This document shows, piece by piece, positions 1,362 through 19,929 of a stretch of DNA of 64,000 bases. The stretch comes from an uncultured Alphaproteobacteria bacterium (lineage in GTDB: Bacteria > Pseudomonadota > Alphaproteobacteria > SP197), in the NCBI GenBank assembly GCA_958295695.1, contig OY282363.1, positions 1,738,225 to 1,802,224 on the forward strand, read 5' to 3'. The translations under genes and the position numbers were made by a program. Position 1 is the first letter of the stretch. Every line of letters begins with the position of its first letter. The notes under the pieces were generated by a model, which was given only the letters and a program-made list of their open reading frames with translations, ran no database searches and was not told the origin of the DNA.

Positions 1362-1900
1362 CTACTCGGTCGCCGCGGCCTCATCCTCTTCCTTCATCTG
1401 CTTGAGCAGTTCGGCGTTGTCCATCATGGCCTGCTTGCGGGCGCTACAGGAGCAACCGCCGTACTGGGCCCAGGTCACGGGATCGACGAAGGGGCCCGAC
1501 CACATGCCGACGCCGTCCCGTTCGGCGGCCGCGGCGCGCTCGAGATACTCCGCGCCGCGGTCTTCGTCGGGCACGGCAAGCCCGGCGTCGATCATGGCGC
1601 CGGCGAGGTCGCGGCCCGCGGCGCTGCAACGGCCCACGAGGCCCGCGCCCGTTTCCGCGATGTCCGAGCAGACGACCTCGTCGGCGCCGATCGCTTCTTC
1701 GAGATAGAGCGCCGCGTCCCAGCCGCAGGACCAGACGTTGTCCCTGGAACCGCAATTCTGGGTGATGGTCGGCGCGTGTACGCCATGGAGGGTCACCTCC
1801 CGTTCGCCGAACCGCACGGTGTCGCCGTCCATCACCATGGGTTGGCCGGCGAACTCGGCGAACGCCAGAGCGGGCGCCAGAGCGAGGATTGCCGTCAGCA
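1362..1900 (-). CDS. Secreted thermonuclease (staphylococcal-nuclease-like) family protein
   Basis: C-terminal 182 aa of ORF 1362..2696, from a GTG at 1900. It has a signal-peptide-like N-terminus (VKRLLTAILALAPALAFA) followed by the SNase-like core (MVMDGDTVRF...EVTLHGVHAPT...). Confidence 0.7.
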
Positions 1901-1984
1901 GACGTTTCACGGTGTCCCTCCATCGTGTTTGCCGAGCGACCGGAGTATGGCCCAGGCGCGGGAACCGCGCCAAGAGGCCGGATT

Positions 1985-2788
1985 TCACGTTTCCGCGCGC
2001 CGCAGAACGGCGATGAGCTCGTCTTCGAACGGAACGAGCGCGAGGTCGCGGCCGATGCGGGCGGCCAGCGCTTCGACGTGGCTCCGGTAGGTCTCCCGCA
2101 TGCCCTTCTCCCGGCCGCCGAGCGACCGTGCGGGGTAGGTGACGACCACTTGGGGGACGTCGGCGAGGCGCCGGAGCAGCGCGAGGGACGCGCCGTCGTC
2201 CTGCCGGTCGAGGCAGGGCAGGGTTTTGAGCGCCAACGCCAAGTCCGCGCCGCCGCTCTCGATTCCGCCCAGAACGTCGGCCCACAGGCTTTCGCCCGGC
2301 CGGCCGAGGCGCTTGAGAAGCCGCCCCGTCGCCTCCGCGACGCGGCGGTTCGCCTCCACGGCGCGGTAGCGGGTCGAGGGCGGTAGACCCATGAACGGCA
2401 GCGCGAAACCGTTGAAACCCGCCGCGACATCCAGGATGTGCGCGGGGAACCCGGTCTGGGCCCAGATGGCGGCGTAGAAGGCGTCCAGACGGTCGAGCCG
2501 CTCCGCGCTGGAGCGGTGCAGGCGGAGGACCGCCCGGCATGTCTCGACGATGTCGGCGCCGGTGTCCAGCGCATCGAGCCGGCGTTCGAGCGCGCGCAGG
2601 CTCCCGGGATCGAGGTAGGCGCCGAAAGCCTGATGCAACTTGCGCTTGGCGGCCTTCAACGCCTCGGCGGGCCTCGAATGCCGCTCGATCGCCCATCGCG
2701 CCGTTCGCTCCAGGGCCTCGGGCGCCAGGTCGCGGTACTTCGACGATGACGAGAGGACCCCGACGACCGAAGCGAGGGGATCAGCCAT
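1985..2788 (-). CDS. FmrO/Rmt/ArmA-family 16S rRNA (guanine1405-N7)-methyltransferase homologue
   Basis: 267 aa. Block-wise similarity to RmtB/ArmA: SSKYRDLAPE vs SKKYRALCPD, KRKLHQAFGAY vs KKKLHQIWGSY, LDVAAGFNGFAL vs LDFGCGFNPLAL, ALKTLPCLDRQ vs LLKMLPVLKQQ, YPARSLGGREKGMRETY vs FPTRSLGGRGKGMEANY. It overlaps the upstream tgt-like stop by 8 bp. Confidence 0.8.
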   Translation of the reverse strand: MADPLASVVGVLSSSSKYRDLAPEALERTARWAIERHSRPAEALKAAKRKLHQAFGAYLDPGSLRALERRLDALDTGADIVETCRAVLRLHRSSAERLDRLDAFYAAIWAQTGFPAHILDVAAGFNGFALPFMGLPPSTRYRAVEANRRVAEATGRLLKRLGRPGESLWADVLGGIESGGADLALALKTLPCLDRQDDGASLALLRRLADVPQVVVTYPARSLGGREKGMRETYRSHVEALAARIGRDLALVPFEDELIAVLRRAET

Positions 2789-3866
2789 CGGCCTCGCTCC
2801 GGCGCATCCTGTCGATCAACCGGGCGTAGAATCCGAGGTTGTGGCGCGTGGCCAGCCGCTCCGCCGCCGCATCGCCGATCTTGAAGAGATGATGAAGGTA
2901 GGCGCGCGAGGGGCCTTCGGGATCGAGGGACGGGTCTAGGGCCGACCGGTCTCGCGAGTGCCGTTCATGCTCCATGTAGAGAACATCATAAGATTTATTA
3001 TTTTTCAATATATTATCACTATTATCTAATGTAATATATAAACGCTTGCGACGAGCGTTGCGAGTGGGCAGGGCGCAGTCGAACAGACGGTAGCCGGCCC
3101 GCCAGGCCGCGAGCATGTTTTCCGGCTTTCCGATGCCGAGCGCATGCTTGGGGGCGTCCGCGGGCAGCAGGTCCGCGGTCATGGCGACCATGTCCGTCAG
3201 CAGGCCGTCGTCGCCGATGGGCCAGCCGCCGAAGCCGAAACCGTCGAAACCCATGCCGGCGAGCTCGCCGGCGCAACGTCTGCGCAGGTCGGGATCGGCG
3301 CCGCCCTGGACGACCGCGAAGAGCAGGGGGCGCCCGGCGGCGGCGGCGCCCGGTTCGCAGCCGGCCCGGGCGACGAATTCGTCGCGGCAGCGCCGCGCCC
3401 AGTCGAGCGTCCGTTCGATCCCGGCCCGCTGCGCCTCGGCGGGATCGTTGGGGTGGGTGCACTGGTCGAGGCAGAACAGGATGTCGGCGTCGAGATCGAG
3501 CTGGCGCCGGATACACTTCTCGGGCGTGAGGAGGCGCTTCCTGGCGCCCTTTTCGTGCCGGTAGACGAAGCCCCTGTCGGTCACGCTGCCGAGGCCCGCG
3601 CCGGACGCGGCCATCGACCACGCCTGGAAGCCTCCGGAATCGGACGCGGCGATGCCGTTCCAGCCCATGAAGCGGTGGACGCCGCCCACGGCCTTCACGG
3701 TCGAGGCGCCCGGCCGCGTGGCGAGATGCAGGCTGTTCACCATCAGCGCCTCGACGCCGCATTCGGCGAGGTCGCGGGAATCGAGACCCTTCACGACCGC
3801 GCGCGTGCCGTCGGGCAGGAACGCCGGCAGGCGGAGCGGGCCGCGGCGGGTGCCGAGGACCTTCAC
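2781..3866 (-). CDS. tRNA-guanine transglycosylase (Tgt) paralogue lacking the zinc-site cysteines
   Basis: 361 aa. Tgt catalytic motifs are present (SDSGGFQ; LDQCT; GIGKPENM; FDCALPTRNARRKR; SRAYLHHL...RHNLGFY). The CxCxxC zinc site is replaced by LDPSLDPEGPS. The gene contains a 71-bp AT-rich in-frame segment (2974..3044). Its 4-bp start overlaps the rsmI stop. Confidence 0.8.
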   Translation of the reverse strand: MKVLGTRRGPLRLPAFLPDGTRAVVKGLDSRDLAECGVEALMVNSLHLATRPGASTVKAVGGVHRFMGWNGIAASDSGGFQAWSMAASGAGLGSVTDRGFVYRHEKGARKRLLTPEKCIRRQLDLDADILFCLDQCTHPNDPAEAQRAGIERTLDWARRCRDEFVARAGCEPGAAAAGRPLLFAVVQGGADPDLRRRCAGELAGMGFDGFGFGGWPIGDDGLLTDMVAMTADLLPADAPKHALGIGKPENMLAAWRAGYRLFDCALPTRNARRKRLYITLDNSDNILKNNKSYDVLYMEHERHSRDRSALDPSLDPEGPSRAYLHHLFKIGDAAAERLATRHNLGFYARLIDRMRRSEADG

Positions 3867-4573
3867 GCCCGGCCCTTCGTCCGCGGGAACTTCGGGTTGT
3901 CGCCGGCGATCACGACCGTGACCTCGCCCCTGGGCGTCTCCTCCGAGAACCGCGCCGCGAGGGTCGAGATCCAGCCCCGGGCGGTTTCCTCGAACATCTT
4001 GGTGAGCTCGATGCAGACCGCCGCCCTGCGGTCGCCATAGACCTCCAGCGCGTCGGCCAGCAAGGCGCCCAGCCGGTGGGGCGATTCGAACAGCACCTGG
4101 GTGTGGCCGCTGCCGGTTTCGGCGGCCAGGAAGGTCCGCCGCTTGCCGGCCTTGCGCGGCGGGAAGCCGCGGAACGTGTAGCTCGCCGTCGGCAGGCCCG
4201 AGAGCGCGAGCGCGGTGGCGACCGCCGTCGGTCCCGGAACCGCCTCGACCGCGAAACCCTCTTCGGTGGCCATACGGACCGCGCGAAAACCGGGATCGCT
4301 GAGCCCCGGCATGCCGGCGTCGGTGGCGAGCCCCACCTTGAGACCCCGGCGCAGCAGGCCCGCCATGCGTTCCGTGGCCCGGTCCTCGTTATGGTCGTGG
4401 CAGGAGAAGACCACGGGCGGGCTGCGCAGGCCGAAGCGCTCGTAGAGCTTGCGTGTGCGGCGCGTGTCCTCGCAGGCGAGAGCGTCGAGCGAACCCAGGG
4501 TATCGAGGACCCGCTTCGAAATGTCGTCCAGGTTGCCGATAGGCGTGCCGATCAGGATGAGCGTGCCCGTCAT
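3863..4573 (-). CDS. rsmI: 16S rRNA (cytidine1402-2'-O)-methyltransferase
   Basis: Start set at the internal ATG (MTGTLILIGTPIGNLDDIS...) of ORF 3863..4714. Tetrapyrrole-methylase fold motifs are typical of RsmI. Confidence 0.85.
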   Translation of the reverse strand: MTGTLILIGTPIGNLDDISKRVLDTLGSLDALACEDTRRTRKLYERFGLRSPPVVFSCHDHNEDRATERMAGLLRRGLKVGLATDAGMPGLSDPGFRAVRMATEEGFAVEAVPGPTAVATALALSGLPTASYTFRGFPPRKAGKRRTFLAAETGSGHTQVLFESPHRLGALLADALEVYGDRRAAVCIELTKMFEETARGWISTLAARFSEETPRGEVTVVIAGDNPKFPRTKGRA

Positions 4574-4632
4574 GCGCCTTCCGTTCTTGACCCCGCGTCC
4601 GCGCCCCGTTTCCATGCCCGCGTTCGGGCGGG

Positions 4633-6729
4633 TTGTCGAGCATGGCGGGTTCGAAGGAGACCCTCGCGGCCCTGGTGGCGCCGCGGCGCATCGCGGTGGT
4701 CGGCGCCACCCCACGCGAGGGCGCGGTGGGCAACCGGGTGATCCGGCATGTCGCCGGGCCGCGCTTCGCCGGCGGCGTCGTCGCGGTCAACCCGGGCTAC
4801 GGCGAGGTGCTCGGCCGCACTTGCCACCCTTCGCTGGAAGCGCTTCCCGACGCCGCCGATTGCGCGGTCATGTGCGTCGGCGACAACCGCGTCGAGGCGG
4901 CCGTCGAGGACGCCGCGCGCGCCGGCGTCAAGGCGGTCGTCCTGCTCGGCCGCCTCTACGATCCGGGCCACGGCGGCCCCACGCTCCCGGAGCGTGTCGC
5001 GGGCCTCTGCCGGGAGGCCGGCATGGCCGCCTGCGGGGCGAACTGCATGGGTGTGTTCAACACCATCGACGATGTGTGCCTGGCCATGAGCCACCTGCCC
5101 GGGCTGGACCGGCCCGGGCGCATCGGCCTGCTGTCCCACAGCGGCTCGACCTGGTCGGGGCTGGGCGGAAATCACCGGCCGTTGCGTTTCGGGATCGGCG
5201 TCTCGATGGGCAACGAGCTCGTGACGGGCCTGGCGGACTATCTCGAGTTCCTCGTCGAACGTCCCGAAACCTCCGCCATCGGTCTCGTGCTGGAGACGGT
5301 GCGCGACGGCGACCGTTTCGTCGCCGCCGCGGAGGCGGCGGACAGGGCCGGCGTCCCCCTCGTCGCCCTGAAACTCGGCAAGACCGAGAAGGCGCGCGGG
5401 TTCGCGCTCTCCCACAGCGGCGCCCTGGCGGGCGACGAGCGGGTCTACGACGCCGTGTTCCGCCGCCGCAACGTCATCGGCGTCGACACGCTCGACGAGA
5501 TGGCGGATACGCTGGAGGCGATGGCCTGCGGCCGCGCGCCCACGGCCGACACGGTTGGAATCCAGACAGATTCCGGCGGCGAGCGGCAGCTCATCGCCGA
5601 TCTCGCCGAGCGCAACAAGGTGCCGCTCGCTGTCTTCGGCGAGGCCACCCGGGCGGCGCTGGCCGGGGTGCTCGATCCGGGCCTGGAGCCCGACAACCCC
5701 GTGGATTACTGGGGCGAGGGAGGTCTTCCCGTCGCGCCCAGGGTCATGGACGCGATCGCGCGGGCGCCGGAGGTCGGGGTCGTGGTCTTCTCCACCAACA
5801 TGGTGTCGGGCCGTGCGCTGCTCAACGCCTCGACCGCCGCGCTCGAGGACGCCCACCGGGCGACGGACAAGCCCTGCATGATGCTGGCGAACATCTCCGA
5901 CGCCGTCGACGCCGGGGAGGCCGCGCGCCTCCGCGACGCGGGAATCCCCGTCCTTTCGGGCACCGAGACCGGTCTCAGGGCGATCGGCCATCTGATCGGA
6001 TGGCACGCGCGCCGGAGAGAGAGCGGAGAGCGCGGCGGCGCGGTCGAACCACCGGATTCCGGGATCGTGGCGTACTGGCGTCGGCGGCTCGAGGACCGCG
6101 CGCCGGCGCCGGAGGAGGCGATCGCCATGGTCGCCGATTTCGGCGTGCCGGCGCCCGAGACCGCGGTGTGCGCGGACGAGCGGGACGCGGTCGCCGCGGC
6201 GGAACGCATCGGATTCCCGGTCGTGCTGAAGACGGCGGACCCTTCGATCCCGCACAAGACCGACGTGGGCGGCGTTGTTCTGGATATCGGGACCGATGAC
6301 GAGCTTCGCGCGGCCTACCGGGCCATGGCCGGCGCGCTCGGATCCCGCGTCCTGATCCAGCCGATGGTCTCCCCAGGTGTCGAGATGCTCGTCGGGATGA
6401 CGTCGGATCCGACCTTCGGGCCGGTCATGACCCTGGCGACGGGCGGTGTCCTGACGGAGGTGCTGGACGACGCGGTGGCGGCGGCGCCGCCGGTGTCGCC
6501 CGGCGAGGCCGCCGATCTGGTCGCCGGCCTCAAGGGTTCGGTCCTGCTCGATGGCGTGCGCGGCGCGCGGCCGGCGGACCGCGACGCGCTGGCCCGGGCC
6601 GTGTCGCGCCTCTCGGCGATGGCGGTGGCGCTCGGCGACCTGATCGGCGCGTTCGACGTCAATCCCCTGATCGTCCACGAGCGGGGCGTGACCGCCGTCG
6701 ACGCGCTGGTGACGCCGCGGGGACCGTGA
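4633..6729 (+). CDS. Acyl-CoA synthetase (NDP-forming), CoA-binding + ATP-grasp domains (acetate--CoA ligase [ADP-forming]-like)
   Basis: 698 aa. N-terminal CoA-binding Rossmann fold (RRIAVVGATPREGAVG), a succinyl-CoA-synthetase-like middle, and a C-terminal ATP-grasp (FPVVLKTADPSIPHKTDVGGVVLDI). Confidence 0.85.
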   Translation: MSSMAGSKETLAALVAPRRIAVVGATPREGAVGNRVIRHVAGPRFAGGVVAVNPGYGEVLGRTCHPSLEALPDAADCAVMCVGDNRVEAAVEDAARAGVKAVVLLGRLYDPGHGGPTLPERVAGLCREAGMAACGANCMGVFNTIDDVCLAMSHLPGLDRPGRIGLLSHSGSTWSGLGGNHRPLRFGIGVSMGNELVTGLADYLEFLVERPETSAIGLVLETVRDGDRFVAAAEAADRAGVPLVALKLGKTEKARGFALSHSGALAGDERVYDAVFRRRNVIGVDTLDEMADTLEAMACGRAPTADTVGIQTDSGGERQLIADLAERNKVPLAVFGEATRAALAGVLDPGLEPDNPVDYWGEGGLPVAPRVMDAIARAPEVGVVVFSTNMVSGRALLNASTAALEDAHRATDKPCMMLANISDAVDAGEAARLRDAGIPVLSGTETGLRAIGHLIGWHARRRESGERGGAVEPPDSGIVAYWRRRLEDRAPAPEEAIAMVADFGVPAPETAVCADERDAVAAAERIGFPVVLKTADPSIPHKTDVGGVVLDIGTDDELRAAYRAMAGALGSRVLIQPMVSPGVEMLVGMTSDPTFGPVMTLATGGVLTEVLDDAVAAAPPVSPGEAADLVAGLKGSVLLDGVRGARPADRDALARAVSRLSAMAVALGDLIGAFDVNPLIVHERGVTAVDALVTPRGP

Positions 6730-9064: not shown

Positions 9065-9535
9065 TCAGCCGATCGAGGCGTTCAGCATCCAGGCCGTCTT
9101 GTCGTGCTCGGTCATGCGGCCGATCATCATGTCGGCGGTGACCTCGTCACCGGCCTCTTGCGCGGCTTCCATCGCGGCCTTGGCCGAAAGGGCGAGCCGG
9201 GCGTGGTCGCGGGCGAGATTCCCGAGCATGACGTCGGCGTCCTCGGCGCCGTCGTCCTCGTCGAGGCTGGAGAGCTCCGCGAAGGCGGCATAGCTCCCGG
9301 GCGCCCGGCGACCGATGGCGCGGATGCGCTCCGCGACCTCGTCGGCGGCGAGGAACAGCGCGTTGTACTGCTCGCCGAACATGGCGTGGAGGCTGTGGAA
9401 GCGCGGCCCGGTGACGTTCCAGTGGTAACCCTGTGTCTTGAGCATCAGGAGGTAGGTTTCGGCGAGCACGGCGCCGAGCTTGGAGGCCACCGCGCCGCAG
9501 CTGTTGGCGGATGTCGTCCGGGTTCCCTGGGGCAA
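9065..9535 (-). CDS. dps: DNA starvation/stationary-phase protection protein (ferritin-like)
   Basis: 156 aa. Dps signature residues (HWNVTGPRFHSLHAMFGEQY...DEVAERI). Confidence 0.85.
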   Translation of the reverse strand: MPQGTRTTSANSCGAVASKLGAVLAETYLLMLKTQGYHWNVTGPRFHSLHAMFGEQYNALFLAADEVAERIRAIGRRAPGSYAAFAELSSLDEDDGAEDADVMLGNLARDHARLALSAKAAMEAAQEAGDEVTADMMIGRMTEHDKTAWMLNASIG

Positions 9536-9642
9536 GGCTCTTCTCCGTTTCCTAGATTAGAATAATTCCAAATATAAGAAACGGAGCCGGCGTTTTCAAG
9601 GATCGAGCGCCGGTTTCGCACATTGCCGCGGCGGCCGGGGAG

Positions 9643-18230: not shown

Positions 18231-18251
18231 GGAATTTCCTAGTTTAGGGTC
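18231..18251. repeat. IS left terminal inverted repeat
   Basis: ggaatttcctagtttagggtc is the exact reverse complement of 19909..19929. Confidence 0.8.
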
Positions 18252-18448
18252 TTTATATCTGGGCGGTTGACTCTGCGCCGCCAAGGATTCCAAGCTCCCT
18301 CCATCGCCAAACCAACCATGGGACGCCCCTGCGTCGGGCTGCCCGTGAATACAAGACCGTGCGAGCGGGAATCAGCGGGGACCCTGAAACCCATGGTTGT
18401 TTGGCGACCGGCCCGGCACTCCCGCCGGCCGGAACGCTGGAGCGAGTC

Positions 18449-19075
18449 ATGAAGCGGATGATGATTGCGGCCCTCGCGGCACTGCTGAGCGGCGCGGCCT
18501 CGGCTGAGGACTACGAGGAGATGCGTCCCAAGGACAGCAAGCTGCGCCTCGGCGTCCTCGGGGAAGAAGCGGAGGGCTCGTGGTTTCTGGAGGAAAAGAA
18601 ATCGTTTGGGACGTTCCGCTGCGACTACGGTTATTGGGGCTTCGACGACGATCAGCGGAGCAGGGTCAAGGCCCAATACTGCTGGTCGGACAACGTCTCC
18701 TCTTGGGACGACAGTGGCGGCTACACTGGCGAGGAGGCCGACACGGACGAGTTCCTGGAATGGAACGATGAGACACGCCTTGCCGACAGCAGGGACAACG
18801 CCGAGGAAGGCCCTACCATCGAAACCGTCGTCGGAGATGTTGTCGTACACGCCTTCGACGTGGAGAAGGACACGTCTTGGAAGACCTACAGGGAGTGCAT
18901 GGGGTTTCACATGGTCTGGGGCAAGGGGTACGGCGTATCGCGCAAACTCTACGCCAAGTCGCTGACCTTCTACGCCTGCGACAACGCCACCAGCACCATG
19001 TCGGAGGCCAAGCTCCTCCGCATTCTGTCCAGCTTCAGCATCGAAGGTGAGTTCGACGCGCTGGTAGAGAACTAG
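18449..19075 (+). CDS. Secreted hypothetical protein (signal peptide; acidic, Trp/Cys-containing) carried as IS passenger
   Basis: Start at MKRMMIAALAALLSGAASA (signal peptide) inside ORF 18359..19075. Local GC (~60%) is lower than the window average. It lies inside the IS boundaries. Confidence 0.5.
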   Translation: MKRMMIAALAALLSGAASAEDYEEMRPKDSKLRLGVLGEEAEGSWFLEEKKSFGTFRCDYGYWGFDDDQRSRVKAQYCWSDNVSSWDDSGGYTGEEADTDEFLEWNDETRLADSRDNAEEGPTIETVVGDVVVHAFDVEKDTSWKTYRECMGFHMVWGKGYGVSRKLYAKSLTFYACDNATSTMSEAKLLRILSSFSIEGEFDALVEN

Positions 19076-19078
19076 CCG

Positions 19079-19833
19079 TCAGTCTTCCAGCGCGAGCGGA
19101 ATGGTCTTGTTCAGCTTGGGGAAGGCGCGGTTGAGGTCGCCCTTGAAGCGGTTCCAGTTGGGGGCCGCCCGCATGAGCGCCATGACAGCCGCCGAGTGCT
19201 GGTTGAGCTTGACGTGGCCGGGGTCCGGCGTGAACCATTGATGGTGCGTCGTGCGCCGCCGTCCTGTCGGCAGTGTCGGATTGATCCGCTTCAACTCATC
19301 CAGGACGCCGGGCGCCAAGCGTTCGTAGACGAGATCGTTGGTGTAGTGGCCGATGACGGCGGGGCGCTTGTGGCCGTCCGGGCCGGGCCGTCGCCCTTCG
19401 TGCCCTTGCGAGGCTTGCCACCGATAAAGGTCTCGTCCATCTCGACGATGCCGGCCAGAAGCAACCGGTGCTCGGCTTGGGTCATGGCCCGCTTGATCTG
19501 CATGGCGATCCGCCAGGCCGTGTTCTTGTTCACGTCGAGATCGCGGGAAAGCTGGAGCGCCGACAGGCCCTTCTTGGCGTTCAGCATAAGCATGATCGCC
19601 AGAAACCACTTCTGGAGCGGCAGGTGCGTGCGGTGGAAGATCGTCCCGACCGTCACGCTGAACGAGGTCTTGCAGTCGTAGCAGCGATGGCGGCGGCGTG
19701 CGTCGTTGCTGGGAGCGGTGTTGGCCGACCCGCAATAGGGGCACTTCGGCTCGCCCTTCCACCGTGCCGCCTCAAGATGAGCGACGCAGGATTCTTGGTC
19801 GGGAAACCACTCGAAAATCTGTATGATGTTCAT
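19079..19833 (-). pseudogene. IS1595-family transposase, interrupted by a frameshift near 19385
   Basis: The N-terminal part (ORF 19291..19908 from MNIIQIFEWFPDQESCVAHL...CPYCGS...CYDCKTSFSVTVGTIFHRTHLPLQKWFLAI) and the C-terminal DDE part (ORF 19079..19762) are in different frames. The switch is at a ggcccggcccgg repeat. Confidence 0.7.
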
Positions 19834-19908
19834 CGGCAATCCGTCCTTTCGTGGCGCGTTCGATCCGGTGACAGGATGAACATGACCCCCGATTGGGCGG
19901 ATTATCAA

Positions 19909-19929
19909 GACCCTAAACTAGGAAATTCC
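19909..19929. repeat. IS right terminal inverted repeat
   Basis: gaccctaaactaggaaattcc is the exact reverse complement of 18231..18251. It is flanked by the aacgcgat target duplication. Confidence 0.8.

Follow-up and report, generated by a model that had tools for sequence, protein, structure and literature searches.

A conserved AT-rich patch within a Tgt-like gene upstream of an Rmt/FmrO-like 16S rRNA methyltransferase gene in GC-rich Alphaproteobacteria

In a 64,000-nucleotide (nt) stretch of DNA from an uncultured alphaproteobacterium (contig OY282363.1, positions 1,738,225 to 1,802,224; hereafter the window, with positions counted from its first letter), a gene encoding a protein of the Tgt superfamily carries a patch of ~70–100 bases that is extremely AT-rich and that is found at the same codons in related species. 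AT-richness itself is selected in this patch, at all three codon positions, in a tolerant beta-hairpin loop of the encoded protein. We infer that DNA is the level at which the selected property acts and that its target is the gene downstream, which resembles the Rmt/FmrO family of 16S rRNA methyltransferase genes. With a probability of roughly one in three, the patch would be a DNA-level regulatory island, namely an internal promoter and/or a nucleoid-protein site that acts on the rmt-like gene.

The 71 nt at positions 2974–3044 have a G+C (GC) content of 18.3%, as compared with a window mean of 69.8%. An initial annotation of the window had put the value at ~17%, which the measurement bears out, although the string that it noted begins one base late and its peptide reaches down to 2964. 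The standard deviation (sd) of 71-nt GC over the 64 kb is 5.9%, which places the patch ~8.8 sd under the mean, and the binomial tail for no more than 13 G or C in 71 positions at p = 0.6975 is 4.5e-19. No other 71-nt stretch of the window is as poor in GC; the next-lowest has 40.8%, and this and the other low-GC stretches were judged to be probably intergenic without a check against open reading frame (ORF) calls. Averaged over a sliding 21 nt, GC is under 40% throughout 2980–3044. The minus-strand frame remains open across the patch, whose core (2964–3044, minus strand, ~18% GC) comprises codons 275–301 of the Tgt-like gene (K RLYITLDNSDNILKNNKSYDVLYMEH), codons 276–301 of the ORF 2781–3866 reading RLYITLDNSDNILKNNKSYDVLYMEH. 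This core contains two TTA codons, one ATA codon and five AAT codons, and the window patch has 14 TpA steps per 69 nt. An extended zone of A/T-ending synonymous codons, defined over nine related lineages, covers codons 274–306 (2949–3047, minus strand).

The gene that hosts the patch (2781–3866, minus strand; 361 amino acids, GTG start) is assigned to the Tgt superfamily by profile and structure-database matches. Pfam TGT (PF01702) matches residues 4–357, the full length of the protein, with E = 5.6e-79, and solved Tgt structures are matched with E-values down to 3e-61 (Zymomonas mobilis, PDB). By comparison, the NCBIfam equivalog TIGR00430 scores 255.8 bits, below its cut-off of 306.75, and only the superfamily model TIGR00449 is passed. 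The DSGGFQ, LDQCT and FDC motifs align with those of Z. mobilis (equivalents of the aspartates D102, D156 and D280, which serve in catalysis and substrate binding) and are invariant in the clade described below. The three Cys residues of the CxCxxC...H zinc site are replaced in the window gene (MEHERHSRD...), and the segment that stands in for this zinc-binding region of canonical Tgt spans, by alignment, codons 300–326 (2889–2969, minus strand). Judged by its sequence, which fails both the zinc-site and the equivalog tests, the gene is a Tgt-superfamily paralogue and not a canonical Tgt. All three zinc Cys residues are missing across the whole alphaproteobacterial clade, in which the catalytic motifs are invariant, whereas the CDCxxC site is kept in relatives at 44–57% identity and in plasmid homologues. 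The AT-rich patch is confined to the zinc-less clade, one member of which (L164) is zinc-less yet patch-free.

HMMER aligns the patch with the segment GQAFTWDGPINIRNARFSEDLKPLDSECHC of Z. mobilis Tgt, so the patch is homologous sequence without an insertion, and the alignment with homologues contains no indel in the patch. Two claims of the initial annotation hold up in this alignment. The patch is indeed homologous coding sequence written in AT-rich codons, and it does adjoin the lost zinc site, since GQAFTWDGPINIRNARFSEDLKPLDSECHC is the hairpin directly before the CxCxxC ligands that are replaced in the window gene. In the AlphaFold (AF2) model, which has a mean predicted local distance difference test (pLDDT) score of 88, the patch forms a beta-hairpin with strands at residues 275–279 and 293–297, and the hairpin tip (residues 281–290) has a mean pLDDT of 54. 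As modelled, the protein tolerates the patch within the hairpin loop, on the basis of this low-confidence tip and of the Gly/Ala/Pro-rich, 71%-GC loop that occupies the patch position in L164.

We compared the patch across relatives at 68–86% amino-acid identity, comprising Rhodospirillales-like metagenome-assembled genomes and metagenome contigs. A 'ptg' contig from a long-read metagenome of a different sample (L172; ENA ERZ19489113) carries the gene with differences at 4 of 1086 nt and one protein substitution, and its patch is identical to that of the window except for a single ACA-to-ACG change. This independent contig rules out an assembly artefact, against which the initial annotation had cautioned. 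In nine further lineages (68–77% amino-acid identity, gene GC 61–69%), an AT-rich patch with a GC of 0.23–0.33 is present at the same codons. Measured over the 26 codons after FDCxxPTRxAR and compared with the rest of the gene, patch GC is 0.23 versus 0.72 in the window, 0.24 versus 0.65 in L001, 0.23 versus 0.61 in L002, 0.27 versus 0.62 in L081, 0.29 versus 0.62 in L082, 0.27 versus 0.63 in L142, 0.31 versus 0.65 in L162, 0.32 versus 0.69 in L084/L168 and 0.33 versus 0.63 in L166. The contrast is smaller in the L161 group (0.38 versus 0.73), in L085 and L167 (0.46 versus 0.67–0.71) and in L165 (0.53 versus 0.73), and L164 has no patch (0.71 versus 0.73). At nearly all clade loci, no other 71 nt have a GC content as low as that of the patch. 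AT-richness throughout the gene, the pattern in orthologues that the initial annotation had named as contradicting it, is not seen; the orthologues share a local patch.

Recent recombination or gene conversion from a low-GC donor, which the initial annotation had offered as one origin of the patch, or an assembly chimera, would be in keeping with the sharp compositional contrast and the in-frame boundaries. We regard such an import or chimera as extremely improbable. The independent assembly has the same patch, the same codons are AT-rich in nine diverged lineages among which the sequence has turned over, and the length is unchanged relative to homologues. Moreover, BLASTN searches of the patch against plasmid and phage collections returned chance matches only (E at least 0.06), and no donor-like sequence emerged from these collections and the fetched loci, which together made up the search. 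Low-GC members of the family are dissimilar to the patch, and distant relatives (44–57% identity, many phyla) do not have it. In a neighbour-joining tree built without the patch, L164 is basal and is followed by the weak-patch group and then by the strong-patch lineages, patch GC declining stepwise on the backbone (0.71, then about 0.5, 0.32 and 0.25). From this order it follows that the patch arose and intensified within the clade, or that it was lost repeatedly.

Evidence for selection on base composition comes from the codon alignment of the nine strong-patch lineages. GC at third codon positions (GC3) is 0.1–0.4 in codons 274–306, as compared with 0.7–0.85 elsewhere. At invariant residues, 51 of 63 third positions (81%) inside this zone are A or T, as compared with 233 of 945 (25%) outside it (Fisher p = 2.6e-19, a statistic that ignores phylogeny), and invariant-residue GC3 falls from ~0.75 to ~0.19 within the zone. 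In general form only, these figures support the suggestion of the initial annotation that the coding sequence has a further function at the level of DNA or RNA. The AT share is 61–91% at each of the three codon positions of the patch, and Ala, Gly, Pro and Arg together make up 2.4% of the patch residues versus 36% in the rest of the protein. The base counts of the patch (A 217, T 255, G 70, C 79) reveal no strand asymmetry. Between lineages, nucleotide identity is 47–71% in the patch and 69–81% in the flanks, many of the patch differences being A-to-T or T-to-A, and in the protein a hypervariable patch lies between nearly invariant flanks. The sequence has thus turned over with AT-richness persisting; it is the composition, and not the sequence, that has been held.

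A hairpin tip that was freed of protein constraint along with the zinc site could also have drifted under AT-biased mutation, with no function. The hypervariable amino acids of the patch and its stepwise strengthening in the neighbour-joining tree agree with such neutral decay, which nevertheless appears very unlikely to us. Synonymous sites at invariant residues are also A or T, although the same GC-favouring force would be expected to act on them, and no other stretch of the window, probable intergenic ones included, is in rounded figures under 41% GC. Furthermore, the L161 group, the closest sister lineage of the window at 86% amino-acid identity, keeps AT-type residues with C-ending codons (patch GC3 0.62), which amounts to a rapid return to such codons, and the unconstrained loop of L164 is GC-rich. 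These two lineages display genomic GC pressure where the constraint is absent, which argues against neutral decay.

Two further observations concern how the patch varies. Between L161 and L173, which together with L174 are near-identical sister-species contigs and close relatives of P0002, three of seven differences fall inside the 78-nt patch, so substitutions concentrate in the patch over short evolutionary times as well. In addition, certain synonymous choices are kept even in weak-patch lineages, namely CGT for R276, CTT for L297, GAT for D301, GAA for E302 and CAT for H304; these lie in 3023–3047 and 2949–2978 (codons 274–282 and 297–306).

In the DNA-level explanation that we favour, the zinc-less alphaproteobacterial (Rhodospirillales-like) clade had probably begun to diversify before the patch arose, and most lineages would have retained it while its sequence turned over. 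A TpA-rich duplex of ~70–100 bp that melts easily would serve as an intragenic regulatory site; it could start transcription inside the gene, nucleate the binding of an AT-binding nucleoid protein (MucR, for example), or do both. The output would be the expression of the translationally coupled rmt-like gene, set relative to that of rsmI and the Tgt-like gene. A property of duplex DNA fits the patch because strand asymmetry is lacking and TpA steps are many. MucR is described (PMC9410896, PMC10746212) as a silencer of AT-rich DNA in alphaproteobacteria that binds AT-rich, TpA-rich DNA. In composition, and in composition only, the patch agrees with MucR- or H-NS-like sites (18% versus 70% GC, 14 TpA steps in 69 nt). 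As for a promoter, the region 1900–4900 contains a single sigma70-like hexamer pair as compared with 0.2 expected in shuffles, ATTACA-17-TATATT with 9 of 12 matches at 3007–3035 on the minus (sense) strand, and a transcript started there would read into the rmt-like gene. In the 61%-GC relative L001, a stretch of ~130 bp at its positions 1060–1190 has 8% GC over 71 nt; judging by the sequence and a mechanical ORF list, it appears to lie between genes and may hold a promoter. If it is regulatory, regulatory DNA of this clade can reach a GC content even lower than that of the patch. In the homologous plasmid module, Doi and colleagues (2008) reportedly found that transcription of rmtD starts in part from inside the upstream tRNA-ribosyltransferase gene.

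Several points weigh against this explanation. No –35/–10 pair is conserved in position or sequence among the relatives, and a conserved sigma70 promoter was found on neither strand; –10-like hexamers do occur in the relatives, without conservation of position or strand, and the antisense strand is as promoter-like as the sense strand. The probable intergenic low-GC stretches never fall below 41% GC at the 71-nt scale, and an ordinary promoter here therefore needs no 18% GC. L164, L165, L167 and L085, in which the patch is absent or weak, keep the same operon, so the element is dispensable. The Fisher test on third positions takes no account of shared ancestry. Finally, an explanation by rare codons predicts much of the same pattern. 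As to known sites, no conserved match to CcrM (GANTC), CtrA (TTAA-N7-TTAA), DnaA-box, Fur-box or IHF motifs was seen by eye, no formal scan having been made.

The rare-codon explanation, a possibility that we hold to be real but rather doubtful, takes the patch as a position-conserved cluster of rare codons (TTA, ATA, AGT, TCT, AAT and AAA) that slows ribosomes ~60–85 codons before the end of the Tgt-like ORF. Such a pause could aid folding of the barrel before the zinc-less C-terminal subdomain emerges, or it could throttle or gate ribosomes into the rmt-like ORF, which overlaps by 8 nt, in a manner comparable to bldA/TTA control. The codons are rare indeed: the mean natural logarithm of the synonymous-codon fraction is –2.48 in the patch versus –0.78 (sd 0.21) in other 27-codon windows, and this lies below the minimum (–2.22) of 11,811 such windows. 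TTA accounts for 1 in 12,009 other window codons and for two in the patch, ATA has a frequency of 0.5 per thousand, and L277 is encoded by TTA in seven of the nine strong-patch lineages. A position that is conserved though the amino acids vary is the signature of conserved rare-codon clusters (PMC5438181). In the AF2 model the patch falls where the barrel gives way to the C-terminal subdomain, and it is found solely in the clade without a zinc site. A pause, however, needs synonymous changes only, whereas first and second codon positions are also 61–91% AT here, and the patch has hardly any Ala, Gly, Pro or Arg even though their rare codons GCA, CCA, CCT, CGA and AGA would serve equally well. 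Moreover, ~33 codons is long for a pause site, and the zinc-less member L164 has no patch. Nine of the 12 rare codons in the patch consist of A and T throughout, as compared with 6 of the 20 rare codon types, which points to AT content and not to codon rarity alone.

A related proposal, in our judgement highly improbable, is a decoding sensor within an operon of decoding-centre modifiers, namely RsmI (Cm1402), the Tgt-like enzyme and the Rmt-like enzyme (m7G1405), in which the way that tRNA or rRNA is modified would govern ribosome transit through the patch. If true, the sensor would set the number of ribosomes reaching the rmt-like ORF, and translation quality would feed back on the enzymes that tune it. 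NAY codons (Asn, Asp, His and Tyr) are read by queuosine-modifiable tRNAs. These four residues represent 36% of the patch residues versus 15% in the rest, and 9 of the 10 NAY codons of the window patch end in U. Enrichment of queuosine-decoded NAY codons was nonetheless rejected as a candidate: with four conserved Tyr/Asp columns removed, the share is ~26% versus ~21% expected from composition (rough estimates), which gives no specific support. The only tRNA genes of the window are those for tRNA-Pro and tRNA-Arg.

At the RNA level, the patch could act as an AU-rich unstructured element of the mRNA, that is, as an RNase E entry or cleavage site or as an Hfq or S1 site, so that within the operon transcript the rmt-like segment would have a stability of its own, separate from that of the part carrying rsmI and tgt. 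We consider this unlikely. In its favour, the (ARN)n run AAA-AAU-AAU-AAA is a motif of the Hfq/S1 type, and runs of three or four in-frame ARN triplets, read from the sequences, recur at codons 289–292 in several lineages. Folding of the patch RNA is weak in strong-patch lineages (–7 to –18 kcal/mol per 93 nt versus –37 in L164), and AU-richness that is independent of sequence would fit the observed turnover. Against it, there is no A-versus-U or purine asymmetry between the strands, no Rfam match and no significant structure (z = –0.9), and the closing helix CGUUUAU/AUGAACG has no compensatory changes and does not exceed shuffles. The search with Rfam covariance models gave one chance match (E = 0.29), which lies outside the patch.

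Other candidates were tried and rejected. A stable or conserved RNA fold is contradicted by the fold z-score of –0.9 and by the lack of a conserved fold among lineages. The long-range 7-bp helix CGUUUAU/AUGAACG is 86% paired but has no covariation and is no better than shuffles, and its pairing is due to the conserved residues R-L-Y and D-E-R. An intrinsic terminator formed by AACGCT...AGCGTT and TATATATT at 3059–3041 has a stem of only 6 bp that is not kept in relatives, and it lacks a U-tract as its tail. An internal translation start was considered at the Met that follows the patch, but relatives have M, L, I or V there. A variable region of the diversity-generating-retroelement type does not fit either, as the window contains no second AT-rich copy and the variability is between species. 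Whatever probability remains after the explanations weighed here is left for something that we have not considered.

The Tgt-like gene is the central member of an operon of overlapping ORFs, between rsmI and the rmt-like gene on the same strand. Upstream, rsmI (16S rRNA C1402 2'-O-methyltransferase; 3863–4573, minus strand) is identified by TIGR00096 with a score of 180.4, above the cut-off of 167.9, and overlaps the start of the Tgt-like gene by 4 nt. Its true start is probably near 4573, though the listed ORF runs to 4714, in view of the length of its relatives (236–250 amino acids). Downstream, the gene similar to FmrO/Rmt-family 16S rRNA (G1405-N7) methyltransferase genes (1985–2788, minus strand) matches PF07091 with E = 2e-42; its NF000466 score of 178 is below the cut-off of 250, and its ORF shares 8 nt with the end of the Tgt-like gene. 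The order rsmI, Tgt-like and Rmt/FmrO-like is kept at every clade locus recovered (L161–L168 and L172–L174 among them), and in relatives an SNase-like ORF then follows the rmt-like gene.

Elsewhere in the window, a perfect 19-bp inverted repeat GGAATTTCCTAGTTTAGGG at 18231–18249 and 19911–19929 flanks ~1.7 kb of lower-GC DNA. Inside it lie an ORF at 19291–19908 (minus strand), read by eye as a zinc-ribbon/DDE transposase of the IS1595-like type, and a 238-amino-acid passenger ORF at 18359–19075. The whole is probably an insertion sequence element. Ranked by GC from the lowest upwards, its two ends come third and fifth among the windows of the 64 kb. Second in this ranking (41%) is the stretch at 9533–9603, which is apparently intergenic; in it, the two arms of a 9-bp inverted repeat, CTCCGTTTC...GAAACGGAG, flank an AT-rich spacer of ~26 nt, and this could be an operator or a terminator-like hairpin.

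The patch provides a natural example in which selection on base composition overrides codon usage and amino-acid choice within a conserved enzyme and persists through speciation. The element is short and is dispensable in some lineages, and L161 and L164 represent natural 'recoded' controls, so that explanations at the level of DNA, RNA or translation can be directly tested against one another. The operon is also a chromosomal counterpart of the tgt-rmt modules in which the pan-aminoglycoside-resistance genes rmtG, rmtD and rmtB2 are found on clinical plasmids. It may reveal the setting from which acquired G1405 methyltransferases come, and native control of such a methyltransferase could explain how these genes were regulated before their mobilisation.

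Linkage of tgt-like and rmt genes was already known from clinical plasmids (PMC9311965, PMC3904158). Our comparison with plasmid modules (L169–L171; Klebsiella and Providencia plasmids) reveals that rsmH-tgt-rmtG, tgt-rmtD2 and tgt-(metallophosphoesterase)-rmtB2 resemble the window operon in the order of h44 (helix 44) methyltransferase, Tgt-like and G1405 methyltransferase genes and in that the ORFs overlap or are adjacent. The plasmid Tgt-like proteins have 40–44% amino-acid identity to the window protein and keep the CxCxxC zinc site, and the plasmid genes have no AT-rich patch, with 59–63% GC at the codons in question.

We found no published description of a patch of this kind. Streptomyces bldA/TTA control is similar in that TTA is nearly absent elsewhere (1 in 12,009), with two TTA codons in the patch and conservation of TTA at L277, but the patch differs in being a general AT-rich run and not a single TTA; to our knowledge, no regulated tRNA-Leu(UAA) is known in the patch-bearing group. 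Its nearest likenesses are conserved rare-codon clusters and intragenic AT islands, and the patch differs from both in its extremity, in its non-synonymous positions and in its vertical persistence. Like the rare-codon clusters of Chaney et al. 2017 (PMC5438181), it consists of the rarest codons, occupies the same alignment position and lies near a domain boundary. Unlike them, it has A or T at non-synonymous positions too, excludes residues with GC-rich codons, is ~33 codons long and drops from 70% to 18% GC, far beyond ordinary clustering. With the sites of xenogeneic silencers (H-NS, Lsr2, MvaT and MucR) and with intragenic promoters it shares a short, TpA-rich AT island in a GC-rich genome, and the window patch is promoter-like on both strands, as are intragenic AT-rich promoters. 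Known silencer targets, by comparison, are mostly horizontally acquired genes or promoter regions, whereas the gene that holds the patch described here is vertically inherited, and the patch has outlasted speciation.

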